NCBI GenBank assembly: GCA_033722615.1
Contig: JAWVYQ010000001.1
Coordinates: 21 to 64,020, forward strand
Reading direction: 5' to 3'
DNA: 64,000 bases
Origin: Candidatus Promineifilaceae bacterium
Lineage (GTDB): Bacteria; Chloroflexota; Anaerolineae; Promineifilales; Promineifilaceae
Below the pieces are notes generated by a model. That model searched no databases. It saw only the letters and a program-made list of their open reading frames with translations, and was not told where the DNA came from. Of this stretch, positions 3,801 through 62,356 are shown piece after piece (positions within the stretch are counted from its first letter, which is position 1; every line of letters begins with the position of its first letter). The translations under genes and the position numbers were made by a program.

Positions 3801-4761
3801 CGAACTCTCTGAACGCCTTCTGCGCCTGGCCCATGAGAACGTCGAGCGCGGCGAAAATCTCTACCAGCTCTTGCAGGCCACGCGCCGCTTCATACCGTTG
3901 GTGCCGGCCGTGCCCAATCTCGCCGCCTACATGAAAGGGCGTCGCTCCGGCCACCTGCAAACCCGCGAAAACGTCCGCCGCGACTTTATCGAAGAGGTCA
4001 AGTCCCTCTTCGAAAGCTTCCTCGCCGATTACGTGGAAGACGATGAGCGCGAAGCTATCTGGAAAGAGGCTTCTTCCGATCTCAACGAAGCCTTCGATCA
4101 CTTTGCCGTCGAAGGTGTGTCGCGGAGCGAGCTGGACAAGCAACAAGAGCGCTTCCGCGAGGAGGTCGACGAAACGTTGCGTCGCCTTCTCATCGATAGC
4201 CTTCAGGCTCTGGACGCCGAACGTCTCTTCCAGGCCCTGCAGGATCGCGTACAAACCGAGCAGGAACGGTGGCGTGAAAAAATCGGCGAAGAACAATACC
4301 AGGAATTCCAGAAGATGTTGCTCGTCAGCAAGATCGACACTGAGTGGCGCGACTACCTGACTGCTATGGACGACCTCCGCCGCGAGGTCAACCTGGAAGC
4401 CTTCGCTCAGCGCGATCCTAAGGTCGAATATAAGCGCCGTTCCTATCAAATGTTTGCCGACATGCGCCGCAACATTGACGAGGCCGTCGTCGATTCCTTC
4501 TTCCGCGAACTCCCCCGGCGCCAGGAATTTATCCAGCGCCAGGAAGCTATCGAAGCGTACGAGGAGCGGATGATCGATGCCGGCTACCAGATCAAACAGC
4601 GAGATCAGGGCAAAGGATACGAAGTGCGCCGGGACGTGGCCAAAGTGGGGCGCAACGATCCCTGCCCCTGCGGTAGCGGGAAAAAGTATAAGCATTGCCA
4701 TGGGCATCCCAGGCGACAGCGCGCCCGCCGCAATCGGAGTCGCGCCGGATCACGTCGCTGA
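847..4761 (+). CDS. secA: preprotein translocase ATPase SecA (unusually long, ~1300 aa)
   Basis: ATG at 847 gives the canonical N-terminus [20 protein letters not shown]-motor motifs are present ([70 protein letters not shown]). C-terminal zinc finger [14 protein letters not shown]. The TTG at 769 only adds a non-SecA-like extension. Confidence 0.95.
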
Positions 4762-4908: not shown

Positions 4909-7900
4909 ATGCCGGATGTACAGTTAGCGACAGCCAGCTCAAAATTACGCGCCTTACACGCCTTCCAGGAGGCGCTTGACGCTGCGTCGTCGCAGGCGGC
5001 CGTCTTTCGCCTCGTTTCCGATTTCGTCGAATTGCATCTTCAAAAGGCCTCTGCCTACTTTCACGAGCCTGACGTAGACCACGGGTCGCCGTCCGCTCCC
5101 GGCGTGCAGATTTCGCTCCCGCTGCGTCCCGACCTGCATCTGAGCCTGAGGCGAGGCGATCCCTTTACCGAAGATGAACTCGCCCTGGCCGAACTGGTTG
5201 CTTCCCTGCTGCGGCAGGCGCCCGCCCTTTCGCGGCCGGTTCGTTCCCACAGCGCTCTCACCCTCTTCCACGAACTCCGGCAGGCTATCGCTCACGCCCA
5301 TGACCTCGACGCCATCCTTTCGCTGTTGGAGTCTAGACTCCCCGACGCCTTTCCGGAGCTTTCTGCCGACATCTTCCTGGCCGAAAACGAAGAGGAGTGG
5401 GAGCAACGCGCTACGCGTCTCGGCCGTCTGGATGGGCCGCCCGCCGAACGCCGCGAAGAGGGGGAAAACGAGCAGGCCGACTGCATAGAAGCCCTCCACC
5501 GGGGAGAAACCCTGCTCCTGGACGAGGCTGGTCGCCGTGTGCCGGTTGGCGAAGCGCCTACCTCACCTCTTACCCGGGCCGTGATTCCCCTCCGTGTAGA
5601 AGAATCGCCCGTTGGCCTTCTCCACGCGGACGGCCGCGGTTACAATGCCCTCTCCGGCCAGGACGTCCTGTCTCTGGAGCTTCTGGCAGCAACCATCGCC
5701 ATCGCCCTTCGCACCGAACGCCTCGTCGGCGAAGCCCGGCAGCGGACCACCGAAATGGAGATGGTCCATGCCATGACCGAGTCGGCGCGCAACCTGAAAC
5801 CACTCCATCCTACCCTTGCCGAGATTCACGCTCAGATCGAGCAGGCTTTCGACGTGCGCGCCTTTCTGGTTGCCCTCTACGAGGTGGAGGAAGAGTTATT
5901 GACCTTTCCCTACGCCGTCGACGAAGGCGAGCCGTTGGCCGTTGAACCGGTCTCCGTCCATGATCAGGACAGCCTCTTTGCCTGGGTCGTCCGTCACAAT
6001 CGCCCCTTTATCACCGGCGACTGGCATCAGGATGAACGCCCGATGGCCGGCGTCGAACTCAAAGATGCCGTCCCCCACTCTGTTTTCTGCTACCCTCTCC
6101 GCATTGGGGATGAAGTCGTCGGTGCCTTTTCCGTCCAAAGCCACCGGCCGCACGTCTTTACCGACGACGACTACCGTCTCCTGACGTCGATAGCGGACCA
6201 GGTGGCCGTCATCGTCCGCAATGCCCGCCTCTACTCGACCACTCAGGGGTTGGTCGATAAGATTGCCCGCGAATATCTCACTGCTGCCTCTCTGCGCCAG
6301 GCCATTGCTTCCATGGGGACCTCTCTCGATCGGGAGGCCATTCTCGACTTCTTGCTCGTCTCGTTGGAAGATATGGTTGGTTACGACAGCGCCATCGTGA
6401 CCCTCATCGAGGACGAAGACGTCGTCACCTTCGCCCATCGTGTCGATGAAGACGGTGAGCCGGCGACCGTCGTCTCCGGCGGCGACGCCGAAACCTTGCT
6501 CGGCGGCCGTTTTGTTACCAGGATAATACGTTCCAAAGAGGCCATTCTGGTCGACGACGTGCGCGACGACCCTCAATGGGCGGACGGCATCCAGGACGAG
6601 GGCGTCGGTTCCCGCCTGGGCGTGCCCATGCTCGCCGGCGACGCTGTGACCGGTGTCCTGATTCTGGAGGATGAGCGGCCGGGTGCTTATGGACAGCGCG
6701 AGGCCTGGTTGGTTTCCGCCCTCGTCTCCCATGCCTCTCTCGCCGTGCAAAACGCCCGCCTGCATGAGGAGGTCCAGGACCAGCTTGACGAGTTATCCAC
6801 CCTCTACGAAGCCAGCAATGCCATTAACGCCAACCTGGATGAGGAAACCCTCCTGCGCACCGTCGTCGGGGAGATGGTGCGCGCCCTTGACGTCGATAGT
6901 TGCACCATTTTTGTCTGGAGCGAGAATCAGCAAGCGTTGCAAACGGCCGCCCATCAGCACCAGTTGGCGTCTGATGGTGAGGATGACGATCCGACTACCG
7001 TTGGTCTGGGCAGCCTTGGCGACCTTGAAGACAATCCTGTCGTCCGGCGCGTCCTCGACACTCAGGACGTTGGTCATTTGCACCGGGATACCGTCGCCTC
7101 CGACGAGGTCCGTGCACTGCTCGACGTTGCCGGCCTGGACATCCTGCTCCTGGTTCCCCTCGTGCGACGCGAACAGACGCTGGGCCTTCTCGCTCTGGGC
7201 CAGGCGGGAACCGATCGCCCCTTTACAGAGCGCGAATTACGCCTGACGCGCAATCTTGCAGCCCAGGTCGCCGTTGCTCTGGAGCACGCTCGCCTTTACT
7301 CGCAGGTTCGGCGGCGCGTCGAAGAGTTGTCCACCTTCCACCAGATCGTTCTGCAACTCAATACCCCGCTGGAGCTGGAGGTCGTCCTGGAAAACATTAC
7401 CGAGTCCGCACTCCAGCTTATCGGCGCCAACAACCTGCACATCTATCTCTACGATGACGACCAGGACGAATTCACCTTTTGCTCCGCCCTGTGGCGCGAC
7501 GGCCGCCGCACGCCGGCCGTCGCCGCCCCCCGCTCCGATGGCCTGACCGCCCGCGTTGTCCACGGTGGCGAAGCCATTATCGTCGACGACGCACCAGAAC
7601 ACGCGCTTTATCAGGGGCCGGAATCCTCTAACTGGGGCGTCTGCGCCATTGCCGGCTTCCCACTAAAGCATGGCGACCGCGTCATTGGGGCCTTTACCGT
7701 TACCTATCTGGAGCCCCACACCTTCACCCCGGATGAGTTGCTGCTCATGAACCTTCTGGCCGACCAGGCGTCTGTCGCCGTCGAAAACGCACGGCTCTTC
7801 GCCGAAGCCCAGCAGCGCTTGCGGAGCATGTCCGCTCTGGTCGATATGGCCAAACAGGTCACCGGCAACCTGAAAGTGGAGATGGTCATGCAGACAACGG

Positions 7901-19329: not shown

Positions 19330-19580
19330 CCAATCTCCGTCCGTGTATGTGTCGCCTGACGACATGTTGCTTGCCGGCAGCATAACATAAATTGGGACCA
19401 AAGGCAAGTTGTTCATGTTGTTCATGTTGGTCACGTTTTTCACTTTTTGCACGGGAGTTTGTGGATGGTGGGAAGTTGTTCGGGGTCACACCAGGCCGGC
19501 CGGCGTGGGAGACGCGGCTTGGGACATTATACCATAGTGAGAAGGTGAAAGATCGGTGAAAAACGGGCCAGATAGGCGGC

Positions 19581-19644
19581 AAAAAAAACGAGGTGGCCGG
19601 TCTCAGCGGGGAGCTGTCCGTACCACCTCTGGGCGGGGAGCAAT
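19581..19644 (-). ncRNA. candidate ~60-nt small RNA, copy A (C-rich 5' end, 14-bp interrupted hairpin with UCCCC loop, U8 tail)
   Basis: The minus strand reads ATTGCTCCCCGCCCA-GAGGTGG-ta-CGG-a-CAGC-tcccc-GCTG-aga-CCG-g-CCACCTC-g-TTTTTTTT. Upstream on the same strand are -35 TTGCGC (19671-19676), a 17-nt spacer and an extended -10 TGcTATAGT (19648-19656). A near-identical copy lies at 54551-54612. Confidence 0.4.
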
Positions 19645-19857
19645 TAAACTATAGCACAAACGGCGGCCGGGCGCAACTCGATTCACGCTCCAATTTTCCG
19701 CTCCCCTGCGCCCGTCAAATTGACTTGTACCGGGTTCCGCTTAGCGATGCCCGGTTTCCGGGAAAATGTGCCTTTCATAAGCAATCGCTTCATAAGCGAA
19801 CTGTTACTTCGCGGGCGTCGTGTGCCCACGTTCCGGGATGTCCTATAATAGGAGCCC

Positions 19858-21426
19858 ATGAACGATTCCAACCGCCCACTGAGCATTACCGGCAATAACC
19901 TGAAAGTTGACGACGTCGTCGCTGTGGCCCGCGGCCGCCCCGTCGCTCTCGATCCCGACGTTCTGCCCCGCGTTGAGCGTTCCCGGCGCGCCGTCGAGCA
20001 GTTGGTCGAAGAAGGGGCCGTGGCCTACGGTATCACCACCGGCTTCGGCCACTTCAAAGATAAGATTATCTCCCCCGACCAGACGGCCGCCCTCCAGCTC
20101 AACCTGGTACGCAGTCACGCCGTCGGCGTTGGCCCCGACCTGTCCGAGCCCGTCGTACGCGCGATGCTCCTGGTGCGGGCCAACACCCTAGCTAAGGGCT
20201 ATTCTGGCGTGCGCCCCGTCATTATCCAGACCCTCCTGGAGATGCTCAACCGGGGCGTCCACCCGCGCATTCCGTCCCAGGGCTCCCTGGGCGCCAGCGG
20301 CGACCTGGCCCCGCTGGCTCACCTGGCCCTCGTCCTCATCGGCGAGGGGGAGGCCGTCTATGAGGGCGAGCATTTGCCGGGGGATGAGGCCCTGCGCGCG
20401 GCCGGGTTGGAGCCGGTCACGCTGCGCGCCAAAGAGGGGCTGGCCCTGGTCAACGGCACGACGCAGATGGTGGGCCACGGCGCCCTCCTCGTGCGCCGGG
20501 CGATCAACCTTCTGCTCACGGCCGACGTCGCCGCTGCTCTTTCTCTGGAGGCCCTGAACGGCACCGCCCGCGCCTACGACGAGCGCGTGCACGCCGTGCG
20601 CCCTCACCCCCGCCAGATCGACGACGCCGCCTTGCTGCGCGCCGTCCTCGACGGCAGCCATTTCCTGCGCGGCCACGACTCCCTCAACGTGCAGGACGCT
20701 TACACTCTGCGCTGCGTGCCCCAGGTGCACGGCGCCGTGCGTGACGCCGTCGCCTATCTCCAATGGGTCATCGACATTGAACTCAACTCCGTCAACGACA
20801 ACCCCATCATTTTTGTGGATGAGGAAACGGGCGCCGTCGACGTCATCTCGGCCGGCAACTTCCACGGGGAGCCGGTGGCCATCGCCATGGATTACGCTGC
20901 GCTGGCCCTCACCGACCTGGGCAACATGAGCGAGCGGCGCGTGGAGCGTCTGGTAGACGCCGACACCAACGGCGGCGTGCTGCCGATGTTCCTCACGGAG
21001 CAGGGCGGCCTTAACAGCGGCTTCATGATGGCTCAGTACACGGCCGCGGCGCTGACATCCGAGAACAAAGTGTTGGCCCATCCTGCCAGTGCCGACTCCA
21101 TCCCCAGTAGCGCCAACACCGAAGATCACGTGAGCATGGGTCCCGCGGCCGTGCGCCAGACCGAGCAGATCCTTTCCCACGTGGAGAGTATCGTGGCCAT
21201 CGAGCTGCTGTGCGCCGCGCAAGGAATCGATTTCCGCCGGCGCAAGATGGGGCAGCCGGACGCCGACCTGGGGCGGGGAACGGCCGTGGCTTACGAACTC
21301 GTGCGCGACGCCGTCCCTTTTCTGGAAGAAGATGTCGCGCTGGCCCCCCACATCGAGCAGGTGCGGCAACTGGTCGCCGCGGGTACAATTAAAGAGATGG
21401 TTGAGGAGCGTCTGGACAGGGAATAA
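19858..21426 (+). CDS. hutH: histidine ammonia-lyase
   Basis: MIO-forming [12 protein letters not shown] motif. The selectivity dipeptide S-H in [11 protein letters not shown] is as in HAL rather than PAL or TAL. AGGAG RBS before the ATG. Confidence 0.88.
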
Positions 21427-54550: not shown

Positions 54551-54612
54551 AAAAAAGTGAGGTGGCCGGTACAGCGGGGGGCTGTCCGTGCCACCTCTGG
54601 GCGGGGAGCAAT
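54551..54612 (-). ncRNA. candidate ~60-nt small RNA, copy B
   Basis: The minus strand reads ATTGCTCCCCGCCCA-GAGGTGG-ca-CGG-a-CAGC-ccccc-GCTG-ta-CCG-g-CCACCTC-ac-TTTTTT. Upstream are -35 TTGCAT (54639-54644), a 17-nt spacer and an extended -10 TGgTATTCT (54616-54624). It matches copy A at 51 of 55 aligned positions, and all differences fall in unpaired positions. Confidence 0.4.
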
Positions 54613-54751
54613 GATAGAATACCATGTATTGAGGAAGAATGCAAATCCTTACTGAAATTCGGGTTATGAGCTTAAGGAATACTTTACACAATCGGGTATA
54701 ATAGCGTTTCCGGACGTATTTTGTATAGATTTCGGCGGCGGACCAGGGCCT

Positions 54752-56962
54752 CTACTCATAGATGAAGCGCTGAACGACGTTATGCAGGAATGTGTGGCGG
54801 GGAGAGCGGTGGGAGTGGACGAGAATCACGGTGCAGTCGGCCCTTTCTGTTATCCAATCTTCGAGTTCGCCAAAGGTGCCGCGGTGGAAGAAGCGGTGTT
54901 GGGAGGCATTCATCACGATGAGGTCTGCGTCGGCAAAGAGGTCTTGTGAGGGCCCGTTGCTACTATCCACACGCACGACGCGGCTTTCCGTAGGCACGGC
55001 GCAAAGCTCGTCGAGCTGCTCGTGGTAGGCTCGAATGGACGCTATCTGAGCGTCAGACGCGCCTTCGCCTACAGCTTGCACGAACTGGATGGAGGCCCGA
55101 TCGTGGGCGGCGATGGCGTTGGCCACGACGACTTTCAGCGGGTCAATGGGCCCGCGATTGGAAATGACGACGATGTTGTCGATCTCGGTCAGGCCCCTGT
55201 TTTTCATAATGAGACTGTCGCACGGGACGTGGTCCATCAGCCATTCAACATCGTCGCCGAAGGGCCAGATGCGGCGTGTCTCGTCCCCGACCTCGGTCAG
55301 GACGAGATTGTTGTTCTCGTGTTCTACGAAATTGCAGATGGCGCGGGGGGTGTCGTGGCTGACGATCTCGCCGACCTGGACAGGAACGCCCAGTTCATCG
55401 GCCAGCTGATTCACGCTCCTCTCAAAGGCAACGTCTTCCGGGCGCTCGGATTCGGCCGCTGCCCTGAGGCTCATCTGGTCGGGCACCTGCTCGAACTGAA
55501 TAACCTGGATCTGGCCGCCGCGCCCGCGGATGACGTCGGCCGCAACGTGCAGCAGCGTTTCTATCTCTTCAACCTTGGTGGCCCGGCGAATGGGAATTAG
55601 GATGCGGTAGGCGCCGACGGCGACGCGGGTCTCTTCGATGGTCCGTTTTTCGGTGCGGCCGCGGGCGGCATCCAGCGCTGCACCTTCCCGGCTGGCCCGC
55701 TCCTGGCCGTAAAAGCGGTACCAGAGGACGCCGGCGAGGATGATGCCCACCGCGCCAACCAGCGGTACAGTTCCCATGAAGAGGAGGAGGACGACGCCGC
55801 CGGCGACGCCGGCCAGTTGCACCCATGGATACCCCGGCGAGCGAAATACGGGCTTGTACTCAATGCGCTCGCTCTCGCGAAAGGCGATGAGGGCCACGTT
55901 GATCATCGAAAAGACGAGGATCTGAAAAGCGCTGGCCAACTTGGCCAAGTCCTGAACAGGGATAAAAGCGATGAGGAAGAGGATGGGAAGGCCGGTAGCC
56001 AGGATGGAGGGGATGGGTGTCCGGAAGCGACTGTTGATGCTCTGCAATATGGGCGGAGCCAGCCTGTTGCGGCTCATGGCGAAGGGATAGCGGGAAGAGG
56101 AGAGAATGCCGGCGTTGGCCATGCTGGTCAGCGCGAGGACGGCCGTGATCACAATGAGGATGAGGCCGACCGTGCCCAGGAATTGTTGGGCGCTATCGGC
56201 CATCGGCGTCAGCGTTTTCCCCAACTCGCCGACAGGGTTAACGCCGACGATGACGAAGACGATGAGTGTGTAAACGAGCATCATGACGACGACTGAAGCC
56301 AGAATGCCGATGGGGATGTTGCGGCCGGGATTCTCGACTTCTTCGGCGACGCTGGCGATCTTGGTAACGCCGGCGTAGGAGACAAAAACGAAACCAGTGG
56401 CTGCCAGCAGGCCGTCCAACCCCAGGTCGAAGAAAGGATGATAATGGTCTTGCTCGACGTAGGTGAGGCCGTCGGCCACGAAGAAGATGAGGACAAGGAG
56501 AACGGCCGATACGATAATGCTTTGTAGGCGCCCCGTTTGCTTGACGCCGAGGACGTTGACGCCGATGAGGAGCAGGGCGAGGAGGAGGGCGACGCCTTTC
56601 GTTGGGATGCTGTCGGTGAAGAGGAGAAGGTAGGCGCCCAGGCCGACGAGGGCAAAAGCGCTTTTGAAGACGAGGGAGAACCAGGCACCAATGCCGGCGA
56701 TGGTGCCTAACCTGGGTCCCATGGCGCGGTCAATATAGAGGTAGGTGCCGCCGGATTCGGGCATGGCAGTGGCCATCTCTGCCTTGCTGAGGGCAGCCGG
56801 AAGGACGATGAAGCCGGCGAGGAGGTAGGCAAGGATGACGGCCGGGCCGGCGATGGTGCTGGCGATACCCGGCAGGACGAAGATGCCGCTGCCGATCATG
56901 GCGCCAAGGCTGATAGTGATAACAGCGTACAGGCCAAGGTCTCGCTCGAGTTTTTTAGACAA
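54752..56962 (-). CDS. APC-superfamily amino acid permease fused to C-terminal tandem universal-stress-protein (USP) domains
   Basis: The N-terminal ~440 aa are polytopic, with ISLGAMIGSGIFVLPG. The C-terminal ~290 aa are soluble, with two USP-like alpha/beta modules. The apparent start is TTG at 56962, preceded by GGGGGA. Confidence 0.85.
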   Translation of the reverse strand: MSKKLERDLGLYAVITISLGAMIGSGIFVLPGIASTIAGPAVILAYLLAGFIVLPAALSKAEMATAMPESGGTYLYIDRAMGPRLGTIAGIGAWFSLVFKSAFALVGLGAYLLLFTDSIPTKGVALLLALLLIGVNVLGVKQTGRLQSIIVSAVLLVLIFFVADGLTYVEQDHYHPFFDLGLDGLLAATGFVFVSYAGVTKIASVAEEVENPGRNIPIGILASVVVMMLVYTLIVFVIVGVNPVGELGKTLTPMADSAQQFLGTVGLILIVITAVLALTSMANAGILSSSRYPFAMSRNRLAPPILQSINSRFRTPIPSILATGLPILFLIAFIPVQDLAKLASAFQILVFSMINVALIAFRESERIEYKPVFRSPGYPWVQLAGVAGGVVLLLFMGTVPLVGAVGIILAGVLWYRFYGQERASREGAALDAARGRTEKRTIEETRVAVGAYRILIPIRRATKVEEIETLLHVAADVIRGRGGQIQVIQFEQVPDQMSLRAAAESERPEDVAFERSVNQLADELGVPVQVGEIVSHDTPRAICNFVEHENNNLVLTEVGDETRRIWPFGDDVEWLMDHVPCDSLIMKNRGLTEIDNIVVISNRGPIDPLKVVVANAIAAHDRASIQFVQAVGEGASDAQIASIRAYHEQLDELCAVPTESRVVRVDSSNGPSQDLFADADLIVMNASQHRFFHRGTFGELEDWITERADCTVILVHSHRSPRHTFLHNVVQRFIYE

Positions 56963-59977: not shown

Positions 59978-60376
59978 ATCATCTCCTGCTTCCCGCCCTT
60001 GTCTGCTGTGGCCGGCGCCCGGGCTCGCGGAGAGGGGCGCCGTGCGGCCCGTTTGCGCCGCAGGCGGCCGGAGGCCGAGAAAAGTCCGACCACGCTCGTC
60101 TATTGGGTGATTCTACCAATGGCGACGGCTGGCGTAAAGGAGCCGGGACGGTACTATTTTCAGTCAGGTGGCGGGATGATATACTGACGCTTGAGAGTCC
60201 GTCCGGCGGGGTTCATGATGGAACACGGACACACCTTCACCCCCCTGAGGCATATAGAAGTGGCACGGAAACGTCTCCCTGACATTCCGTGTTCGCTCTT
60301 TTCTCCAATTCGTTTGAAATGAGTTCCTTGTTGGTTTGTTGGCAAGACGGGGAGCTTTAACCTACAGGAGGTTGTG

Positions 60377-62356
60377 ATGGGACGATTCGCGAATAATCGA
60401 GCCGGGCTGCTATTGGCGGTCGTAGGCGTTGCGTTCTCCCTAATGGCGCTGGCGGCCGGTCTGGCCTTCGCCGATCACCGGCAGGCGACGCTGGTCCAGG
60501 ATATCAATCCAAACGGGGACATGGACGCCCACGCCTCGGGCCTGACCTACTTTACCATCATCACCGACACGCTATACTTTGTGGCCACCGACGGGGATGG
60601 GGACGCAGAACTGTGGAAGAGCGACGGCACGATGACGGGCACGGTGCGCGTCAAAGATATAGCGCCGGGCGTCGACCCTTATACGCCCGGCGACCTGGTC
60701 AACTTCAACGGCGTTCTCTTCTTTCGGGGCAACGAGGGGACGAATGGGGAAGAGCTGTGGGTCAGCGATGGCACCGATACCGGTACCATGATGTTCAAGG
60801 ATATCAACTCCTCGGGCGACGCCACACCTTTCCGTTTCCGCGCAGTGGGCGATTTGCTCTTCTTCACGGCTGACGATGGGACCACTGGCCGGGAGCTATG
60901 GAAGAGCGATGGCACGGTGACGGGCACGGTGCGCGTCCGGGATATCAACGGCGGATCGGCCAGTTCTTTTCCCTCGCAACTAACCGTCTCTGGCAGCAGC
61001 CTCTTCTTTGTCGCCGACAACGGGATCAGCGGCGTCGAGCTGTGGAAGAGCGACGGCACGATGACGGGCACCGTGCGTGTCCGGGACATCAATCCCGGCG
61101 GCGGTTCAGAGCCGCGCGACCTGATCGACCTCAATGGGATACTGTACTTCACGGCCGACGATGGAACGAACGGCCGCGAACTATGGAAGAGCGACGGCAC
61201 GATGACGGGCACGGTGATGGTGGCCGATATTCACCCCGATCCCGCCGCCTTTGGTCCGGACCAGCTCGCGTCTGTGGGCACCGACGTCTTTTTTAGCGCC
61301 GACGACGGCGTGGGTGGGACGGAACTATGGAAGAGCGACGGCACAGAGGCAGGGACCGTTCCCGTCAGGGACATTGTGCCCGGTTCTGGCAGCTCGATTC
61401 CTTCCAACCTCACAGCGGTGAACGGCATTCTCTACTTTACGGCCATCGACGGTGCCCACGGCCGGGAGCTATGGAAGAGCGACGGTACAGAGGCCGGTAC
61501 GGTGTTGGTCGAAGATATCAATCCCGGTAGCGAGCGCTCCTTTGCCGGCAAATTGGTGGACGTTGGTGGTACCCTTTTCTTCCGAGCCGACGACGGCACC
61601 AGCGGCAACGAACTGTGGAAAAGCGACGGCACAAGCGTGACGACGGTCCTGGTGGCCGACATTAACGATGGGGGCGATTCACTGCCCGATTCGATAACGG
61701 CCCTGGGAACAGGCCTCATTTTTACGGCCGACGACGGCGTGGTCGGGCGCGAATTGTGGTTTGTGGAATTGACGAATGAGGCGCCGTCCGCCGAGGCCGG
61801 TGGTTCCTACGCCGGGGGTGAGGGCTCGACGATCTCTCTGAGCGGAACGGCCGCCGACCCGGACGGCGATCCGCTGCAAATTGGGTGGACGGTGGACTCG
61901 GCGTTGTGCGCCTTCTTCGACGCGACAGTGCTGGCTGCCGAGCTAACGTGTGACGACGATGGGACGTTCACGGTGACGTTGACCATCACCGATTCGTGGG
62001 GGGCGACCGCCGTGAGCACGGCTCAGGTAACGGTGGAAAACGTGGCACCTACTGTCGACGAACCGGTTGTCTCCGGCGATCCGGTCCGGATCGAAAGCAC
62101 AGCGACGATCACGGCGACGTACAGCGATCCGGGCGCGGCCGACACGCACACGTACGAAATCGAGTGGGGGGACGGCGCAGTCGATTCGGGAACGGCGGCC
62201 GGCGGGCAGATCGTGGCCGGCCACGCATATGCGACCGATGACGATTATAACATCACGGTGACCGTAAGGGACGACGACGGCGGCGCGGACAGCGCTGTGG
62301 CGACGGTTGTCGTCGTTCGCTTCCGTACGTTGCTACCGGTGGTAGGGGGGCCATGA
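60377..62356 (+). CDS. secreted ELWxxDGT-repeat (beta-propeller-like) protein with two C-terminal PKD-like domains
   Basis: AGGAGG lies 5 nt before ATG 60377, followed by a signal-like LLLAVVGVAFSLMALAAGLAFA. There are eight full repeats of ...GxELW(K/V)SDGTxxGTxxVxDIxPG... at ~48-aa period (60600-61770). Two PKD-type modules follow (DPDGDPL..., VENVAPTV...YNITVTVRDDDGG). Confidence 0.88.
   Translation: MGRFANNRAGLLLAVVGVAFSLMALAAGLAFADHRQATLVQDINPNGDMDAHASGLTYFTIITDTLYFVATDGDGDAELWKSDGTMTGTVRVKDIAPGVDPYTPGDLVNFNGVLFFRGNEGTNGEELWVSDGTDTGTMMFKDINSSGDATPFRFRAVGDLLFFTADDGTTGRELWKSDGTVTGTVRVRDINGGSASSFPSQLTVSGSSLFFVADNGISGVELWKSDGTMTGTVRVRDINPGGGSEPRDLIDLNGILYFTADDGTNGRELWKSDGTMTGTVMVADIHPDPAAFGPDQLASVGTDVFFSADDGVGGTELWKSDGTEAGTVPVRDIVPGSGSSIPSNLTAVNGILYFTAIDGAHGRELWKSDGTEAGTVLVEDINPGSERSFAGKLVDVGGTLFFRADDGTSGNELWKSDGTSVTTVLVADINDGGDSLPDSITALGTGLIFTADDGVVGRELWFVELTNEAPSAEAGGSYAGGEGSTISLSGTAADPDGDPLQIGWTVDSALCAFFDATVLAAELTCDDDGTFTVTLTITDSWGATAVSTAQVTVENVAPTVDEPVVSGDPVRIESTATITATYSDPGAADTHTYEIEWGDGAVDSGTAAGGQIVAGHAYATDDDYNITVTVRDDDGGADSAVATVVVVRFRTLLPVVGGP

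Follow-up and report, generated by a model that had tools for sequence, protein, structure and literature searches.

A multicopy family of short small RNA genes with C-rich tails and loops, predicted in one branch of the Chloroflexota

The window analysed here, that is the whole 64,000-nt stretch of the contig, contains between padR and hutH a compact minus-strand unit of promoter-like boxes, hairpin and T-run, which raises the question of whether this locus is a small RNA (sRNA) gene in its own right and, if so, of what kind. In this unit (copy A) the −35-like hexamer TTGCGC (19671–19676, minus strand), which aligns with TTGCAT in a second copy (copy B) and with TTGCGC in the orthologous copy on metagenome contig L062, is separated by a 17-nt spacer from the extended −10 element TGcTATAGT (19648–19656, minus strand), and six further bases follow. 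The predicted sRNA of about 61 nt (19581–19641, minus strand) runs from a predicted +1 at G19641 to the end of a U8 tract. It comprises an unpaired C-rich 5′ tail of 12 nt, GCUCCCCGCCCA, which represents the putative seed (19630–19641, minus strand), an interrupted 15-bp hairpin that would provide both the terminator stem and a second C-rich site (19590–19629, minus strand), and the U8 tract of the intrinsic terminator (19581–19588, minus strand), a T-run that is kept family-wide. The stem is built from the segments GAGGUGGU/GCCACCUC, CGG/CCG, and CAGC/GCUG, and is closed by the apical loop UCCCC (19612–19608). Promoter, spacer, extended −10 element, hairpin, and U8 tract are present in the sequence as the initial annotation of this DNA had described them. 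Its claim of a second copy with the same promoter geometry was borne out as well, at 54644→54551: copy B has a promoter at 54616–54644 (minus strand), with TTGCAT at 54644–54639, a 17-nt spacer, and TGgTATTCT at 54624–54616, and six bases separate the −10 box from G54609, as in copy A. The predicted sRNA of copy B has about 59 nt (54551–54609, minus strand) and consists of a tail (54609–54598), a hairpin (54597–54559) whose apical loop is CCCCC, and a U6 tract (54556–54551).

When the two copies were aligned with some 80 nt of sequence to either side, their likeness began abruptly at ATTGCTCCCC and ended at the T-run, and the flanks could not be aligned. In the 64-kb window there are exactly two occurrences of the 19-mer GCTCCCCGCCCAGAGGTGG, compared to 0.05 expected. 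Both RNAs folded into the structure given above, with energies of −23.7 kcal/mol for copy A (z = −2.6) and −29.3 kcal/mol for copy B (z = −6.1). According to the initial annotation, all differences between the copies fall in bulges or loops; one of them, U versus C after GGUGG, lies in the stem, but it exchanges a U•G for a C–G pair, so that the preservation of pairing holds. A generic promoter and terminator scanner called neither copy A nor copy B, because their −35 boxes match the consensus at only three to four of six positions and the interrupted hairpin exceeds the loop limit of the scanner. The two copies in the window, taken by themselves, are thus suggestive but not conclusive.

Further copies in relatives, which the initial annotation had proposed to look for, were found in large number by a genome scan and a covariance model. 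The scan looked for CTCCCCGCCCAGAGG followed, after a gap of 30–45 bases, by TTTTT in 185,579 species, each represented by one genome, and it yielded 51 loci, 38 of which carry a unit of the copy A/B type. Together with a second copy in L001 and the two copies in the window these make up 41 pattern matches, and the covariance model added two degenerate copies, one at L015:2868–2929, which has kept the seed and has no T-run, and one at L050:5460–5520, with the seed variant GCUCCUGCCUAGAGG. Members selected by the pattern scored 62–91 bits with the covariance model; against model R1 copy A reached 79 bits (E = 1e-16) and copy B 85.5 bits (E = 2.5e-18), and the window holds no copies other than these two. 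The sRNA is present in 10 species represented by metagenome-assembled genomes (MAGs), which are labelled Ardenticatenaceae, Promineifilaceae, Anaerolineae, or Chloroflexota, at one to seven copies per MAG. Including the metagenome contigs described below, it was found beyond the window in about 50 places, in 10 species-level genomes and 10 metagenome contigs. NCBI places both the Ardenticatenales and the Promineifilales in the class Ardenticatenia. The two near-identical copies counted by the initial annotation are therefore the correct number for the window, but far more exist elsewhere, and they belong to a multicopy family that extends across a bacterial class.

Some genomes contain paired copies 0.9–2.2 kb apart (L001:5341–5400 and 6234–6293; L015:2871–2929 and 4241–4300; L050:3282–3343 and 5460–5520). 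One copy of the pair is degenerate in both L015, where the T-run is lost, and L050, where the seed is altered, which suggests duplication followed by decay. The matches in Thermoguttaceae, Pseudomonas, Shimia, and others had only the 15-mer of the search pattern in common with the family, scored at most 20 bits with the covariance model, and were rejected as unrelated. A separate observation concerns the gut Thermoguttaceae MAGs (L011, L021, L022, L023, L036, L037, and L044), which share a conserved, AT-rich element of about 130 nt (for example L021:2120–2240). This element contains the 15-mer CTCCCCGCCCAGAGG, scores 15 bits with the sRNA model, and is unrelated to the sRNA. Six sRNA copies (L002, L035, L043, L046, L048, and L049) were found in assembly DATHSI01, which is labelled Candidatus Sulfomarinibacteraceae (Acidobacteriota). 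Since the proteins encoded next to them are 64–83% identical to proteins of Chloroflexota MAGs, the MAG is probably mislabelled or a mixed bin.

The family allowed the promoter to be assessed across many loci. A promoter was scored when a TAnnnT −10 box ended 7–9 nt before the C of CTCCCC and a −35 box with at least three of the six TTGACA positions lay at a spacing of 16–18 nt. Of 49 distinct upstream regions, 47 had a promoter so placed; across 500 shuffles the average was 1.4 and the highest count 5. The most common −10 hexamer is TATACT (20 of 48 copies), a TG extension occurs in 24 of the 48 copies, and the −35 hexamer, at constant distance, resembles TTGACA. Apart from these boxes the upstream sequence is not conserved across the family. 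The fixed distance places the start of transcription at, or adjacent to, the G of GCUCCCC, and the promoter that had been proposed for copy A on its own thereby gained family-wide support. These data also bear on the possibility that the unit is a repeated DNA element, such as a palindrome of the REP or MITE type or a protein-binding site, or a mere terminator with no function as RNA. The copies are indeed multiple, palindromic, and intergenic, and a hairpin with a T-run would stop any incoming transcript; for copy B, an amino-acid permease/Usp gene on the same strand has its stop at 54752, 143 nt upstream. However, a promoter kept at a fixed distance within unconserved surroundings, and conservation that sets in at the predicted start site, are not what such an element would lead one to expect. 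It also lacks terminal repeats, and a search of viral contigs for the sRNA returned no match. Together with the low copy number and with the strand asymmetry and synteny described below, this gives a DNA repeat or simple terminator a very low probability.

The pairing of the hairpin is kept across an alignment of 40 sequences, in which 98.3% of the cells of the 15 hairpin pairs were standard pairs, compared to 29–48% when the partners were slid by one to three columns. Double compensatory changes occurred at five pairs, and the variants include CAGC/GCUG, UCGC/GCGA, CAAC/GUUG, and ACGC/GCGU as well as an exchange of GGUGG/CCACC for GGCGG/CCGCC. None of 500 shuffles reached the observed covariation score, and RNAalifold independently predicted the same helix. 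The alignment contains 24 U•G pairs at one position of the hairpin and 5 at another. On the opposite strand each of them would read as an A·C mismatch; they thus fix the transcribed strand and speak against a palindrome that acts as DNA; promoter and T-run are strand-specific as well, although the conservation of the T-run is partly built in, since the pattern of the genome scan demanded TTTTT. The apical loop has 4 or 5 nt depending on the copy, and the bulges also vary in length. A tiny peptide encoded on either strand might be considered because a mechanically called ORF of 101 amino acids (19593–19898, plus strand) overlaps copy A. The one-base differences in loop and bulge length between copies, however, break any frame and rule out a conserved reading frame, the sequence outside the sRNA is not conserved, and no start codon with a ribosome-binding site (RBS) lies inside the unit, so that the chance of a coding function is negligible. 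Within the hairpin, the inner stem alone covaries freely. The sequence of the outer stem, GAGGUGG/CCACCUC, is stricter than structure alone would need, and an ACGGA motif is nearly invariant.

The most conserved part of the sRNA is its 5′ tail. The first 12 nt, GCUCCCCGCCCA, were unpaired in all copies, in copy A both in the minimum free energy structure and in the ensemble, and the single-stranded, C-rich 5′ end that the initial annotation had pointed out is almost invariant. A metagenome scan was restricted to the hairpin pattern GAGGTGGYACGGA...CCGGCCACCTC and imposed no constraint on the tail. It recovered 10 further copies, of which eight carry the exact GCUCCCCGCCCA tail, one a single G→C change, and one a 3-nt insertion, showing that conservation of the tail is no artefact of the search. 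Promoter-like boxes were found at the expected distance in nine of these 10 matches, and the tenth (L054) has just 11 upstream bases, within which a TATACT −10 box is located. The apical loop is C-rich too, with CCC in 32 of 37 distinct copies, including CGCCCG in 18 and CUCCCCG in 10. The RNA thus displays at least two unpaired C-rich motifs, as is characteristic of RsaE/RoxS, namely CCCC and CCC in the tail and CCC in the loop.

All copies are intergenic. The downstream gene lies on the same strand in about 24 and is convergent in about 20 of 49 cases (about 40%). A cis-acting leader or attenuator of the downstream gene, padR in the case of copy A, would agree with the position of this copy upstream of padR on the same strand, an arrangement retained in L062, and with the roughly one half of all copies that have a same-strand gene downstream. 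Against such a function stand the convergent orientation of the downstream genes at about 20 of the 49 loci and the fact that these genes are unrelated to each other; the neighbouring proteins belong to 114 Pfam families, none of which dominates. Furthermore, the sRNA offers no alternative anti-terminator fold: its ensemble is dominated by the hairpin, and tail and loop are both C-rich. Between copy A and padR there is, moreover, a separate extended −10 promoter, TGGTATAAT. The statistics of genomic context have already largely refuted a leader or attenuator, and we assign it only a slim residual probability. Directly 3′ of the terminator of copy A (19525–19570, minus strand), the sequence TTTTCACCGATCTTTCACCTTCTCACTATGGTATAAT comprises TTTCAC/TCAC repeats and an extended −10 element, is kept in L062, and is probably the promoter and operator of padR.

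Orthologous neighbours, with protein identities of 49–98%, are common to 11 pairs of loci and one trio from different assemblies; where paralogues are syntenic between species, the neighbouring proteins have identities of 49–84%. In the most divergent case, L002 and L005, the neighbour is 49% identical and the two copies also share the GGCGG/CCGCC variant of the stem. Such orthologous neighbours indicate that individual paralogues are old and stably placed, which distinguishes them from REP and MITE elements. Their intergenic location, the several syntenic copies, and the roughly 40% of convergent downstream genes together argue for neither a leader nor a REP-like or mobile repeat. HutH of the window is 93% identical to the protein encoded on L062 and 74–83% identical to proteins named Promineifilaceae, Chloroflexota, Anaerolineae, or Ardenticatenaceae, which assigns the window to the lineage of the other copies. 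In L062, the closest relative, copy A is kept with its −35 and −10 boxes and a U→C change that preserves the structure, and the flank proximal to hutH differs by a 140-nt indel. At window positions 19681–19820 this indel appears as a 140-nt insertion between hutH and the promoter of copy A relative to L062, and the inserted sequence holds a small hairpin, TCGCTTATGAAGCGA, at 19785–19799. More distant relatives (HutH identity 76–83%) have a holB or patatin gene upstream of hutH and no sRNA at this site, so that the position of copy A is recent or lineage-specific.

The domains found most often among the neighbouring proteins were Response_reg (7 of 87) and LysM (5 of 87). Compared with a limited set of background genes of this lineage, both were only marginally enriched, Response_reg (2 of 97 background genes) with p = 0.06 and LysM with p = 0.08. 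The response-regulator receiver genes adjoin the copies in L019, L029, L032, L040, L046, L055, and L061; they are mutually 23–34% identical, and several of the seven are single-domain. Neighbours of this type may hint at two-component control.

The RNA could not be assigned to any known family. Rfam 15 gave no match for the whole window at the gathering threshold and none for copy A at E ≤ 10, with RsaE (RF01820), 6C (RF01066), and Chloroflexi-1 among the models, and copy B and the consensus-like L046 copy produced only chance matches, which fell on other sequence or the wrong strand and scored 11–17 bits compared to gathering thresholds of 35–50. In the literature searched, neither the sequence nor a description of such an RNA in Chloroflexota was found. 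The novelty suggested by the initial annotation is consistent with these results, and of the findings that it had named as counting against an sRNA, two, a REP-like hairpin lacking the promoter and an already known RNA family, were looked for and neither was encountered. Features of a generic trans-encoded sRNA that are present comprise an own promoter, an own Rho-independent terminator, an intergenic site, and a conserved, accessible seed region. We regard it as highly probable that the copies constitute a bona fide family of independently transcribed sRNAs. It is an undescribed multicopy family of one branch of the Chloroflexota, the class Ardenticatenia, and no existing family fits, as the comparison with families of C-rich-seed and sibling sRNAs failed on covariance model, length, architecture, and taxon.

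Seed-type sRNAs such as RybB and OmrA/B are built with a conserved 5′ end that is left unpaired and a terminator hairpin behind it. These enterobacterial Hfq-dependent sRNAs resemble the new sRNA in their unpaired conserved 5′ seed, terminator hairpin, and U-tail, and OmrA and OmrB are also paralogues with a common seed, but sequence and phylum are unrelated. RsaE/RoxS (RF01820) of the Bacillales likewise has its own promoter and an intrinsic terminator, and it presents several C-rich motifs in unpaired form; those of RsaE pair with G-rich Shine–Dalgarno (SD) regions. It is, however, roughly 90–115 nt long with two or three hairpins, compared to about 58 nt and one hairpin in the new sRNA, which additionally carries its main C-rich site at the very 5′ terminus, is present several times per genome, and belongs to another phylum, and no similarity between the two was detected by covariance model even at E ≤ 10. 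LhrC1-5 of Listeria share with the new sRNA the several near-identical paralogues per genome, some of them clustered, and C-rich motifs of the UCCC type in a loop and a single-stranded stretch, but show no similarity in sequence or model, and the new sRNA is about half as long. 6C of the Actinobacteria and sX13 of Xanthomonas are similar in carrying C-rich loops on stable GC-rich hairpins in high-GC bacteria, but have two or three such hairpins, no conserved 5′ tail, and a single copy, and they gave no Rfam match. RsaE/RoxS, LhrC1-5, 6C, and sX13 are known to use C-rich seeds for pairing with G-rich RBS regions, and 6C and sX13 are reported to be able to act without a chaperone (PMC6486639, PMC3771888).

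Based on the unpaired 5′ end, the architecture of terminator hairpin and U-tail, and the C-rich seeds of RsaE/RoxS, LhrC, 6C, and sX13, we lean towards a base-pairing riboregulator, with the copies as trans-acting sibling sRNAs whose C-rich seeds would be analogous, but not homologous, to those of RsaE/RoxS, LhrC, and 6C. Each copy would be an independent gene for a non-coding RNA of 56–61 nt. Transcription is predicted to begin from a sigma-70-type promoter, whose −10 box often carries a TG extension, at the G of GCUCCCCGCCCA or an adjacent base, and would end at the sRNA's own hairpin and U-run. The mature sRNA would expose two C-rich sites, the 12-nt 5′ tail and the apical loop C(G/U)CCC(C)G, which may pair in trans with G-rich stretches of a few mRNAs, most plausibly at or near the RBS, and thereby alter translation or stability of these mRNAs. 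The stable hairpin and the U-tail would shield the sRNA, which may also bind a chaperone. Through their differing upstream regions, the paralogues would connect different signals to a seed that they all share.

Direct searches for targets were conducted on the window and on 363 kb of loci from the genomes that carry the sRNA. Complementarity of at least 10 nt to the seed was found only on the antisense strand of the sRNA itself and in scattered 10-mers within coding regions. The energy of the duplex between the seed and 324 crudely called start regions averaged −12.0 kcal/mol and did not stand out from 10 shuffled seeds, which gave −11.6 to −14.1 kcal/mol. K-mers complementary to the seed are rare in start regions; GGGGAG occurs in 5 of the 324, compared to 59 for the usual SD motif GGAGG, and owing to this rarity any targeting of RBSs would concern a small subset of genes rather than SD sequences in general. 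These negative results are weak, because the start regions rest on crude gene calls and the sequence covered was only a small part of each genome. The proposal of the initial annotation, a novel sRNA that represses translation at the SD sequence, accordingly stands in its first part, where promoters, covariation, and tail strongly support an independent sRNA gene; its second part is still a reasonable analogy but gained no support, as the seed performed no better than its shuffled versions. The best site in the window, in the 5′ untranslated region (UTR) of panB (59978–60000, −22.4 kcal/mol), is not conserved in four orthologues (L068–L071) and was rejected as a target. As an anecdotal observation, the gene of a PKD-domain protein (60377–62356) is preceded at a distance of about 190 nt by the near-consensus extended −10 element TGATATACT (about 60176–60184), which implies a long 5′ UTR, and this region (60160–60376) contains ACGGGGAGC, a 9-nt match to the complement of the seed, about 21–30 nt before the start codon.

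The absence of an mRNA-target signal in these searches is also what would be expected if a genuine sRNA bound a protein or an abundant RNA, acting as sponge, decoy, or cofactor with the invariant tail and outer stem as recognition site, instead of the RBSs of mRNAs. Likewise, tail and outer stem are near-identical across orders while free covariation is confined to the inner stem, ACGGA in the hairpin is nearly invariant, and the promoters are often near consensus (TTGACA, TGnTATACT), suggesting abundant expression. That outer stem and ACGGA are so strictly conserved in sequence may reflect a protein-binding or other non-mRNA role. Sponges of the CsrB/RsmZ type look different, however: the new sRNA is very short, with one hairpin, and contains a single, largely base-paired motif of the GGA type, and no conserved neighbouring protein gene was found. 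Moreover, sRNAs that act on many targets through one seed, such as Qrr and OmrA/B, show a comparable invariance of the seed, so that invariance as such is also compatible with base pairing to mRNAs. On balance we consider binding of a protein or abundant RNA a tentative alternative that is rather unlikely. A lineage-specific, abundant housekeeping RNA, whose tail and SD-like and anti-SD-like stem (GAGGUGG/CCACCUC) would engage the ribosome or rRNA, RNA polymerase, or a global RNA-binding regulator, appears improbable; if it were true, the sRNA would stand for a functional class that is new among bacterial small RNAs.

To our knowledge, essentially no trans-acting sRNAs have been characterized in the Chloroflexota, and our literature searches agree with this. 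The filamentous Ardenticatenia and Promineifilum lineages of this phylum are abundant in wastewater and sediments. The family described here was defined from sequence alone, and its evidence is unusually clean, combining a promoter at fixed distance, covariation, an invariant seed, and synteny. The new covariance model is a candidate for inclusion in Rfam and can be used for the annotation of MAGs. As trans-acting riboregulators, these RNAs would add another case of an apparently convergent C-rich seed on a GC-rich hairpin, here in a minimal form of 58 nt and in multiple paralogues, and the family offers a testable way into post-transcriptional regulation in the Chloroflexota.
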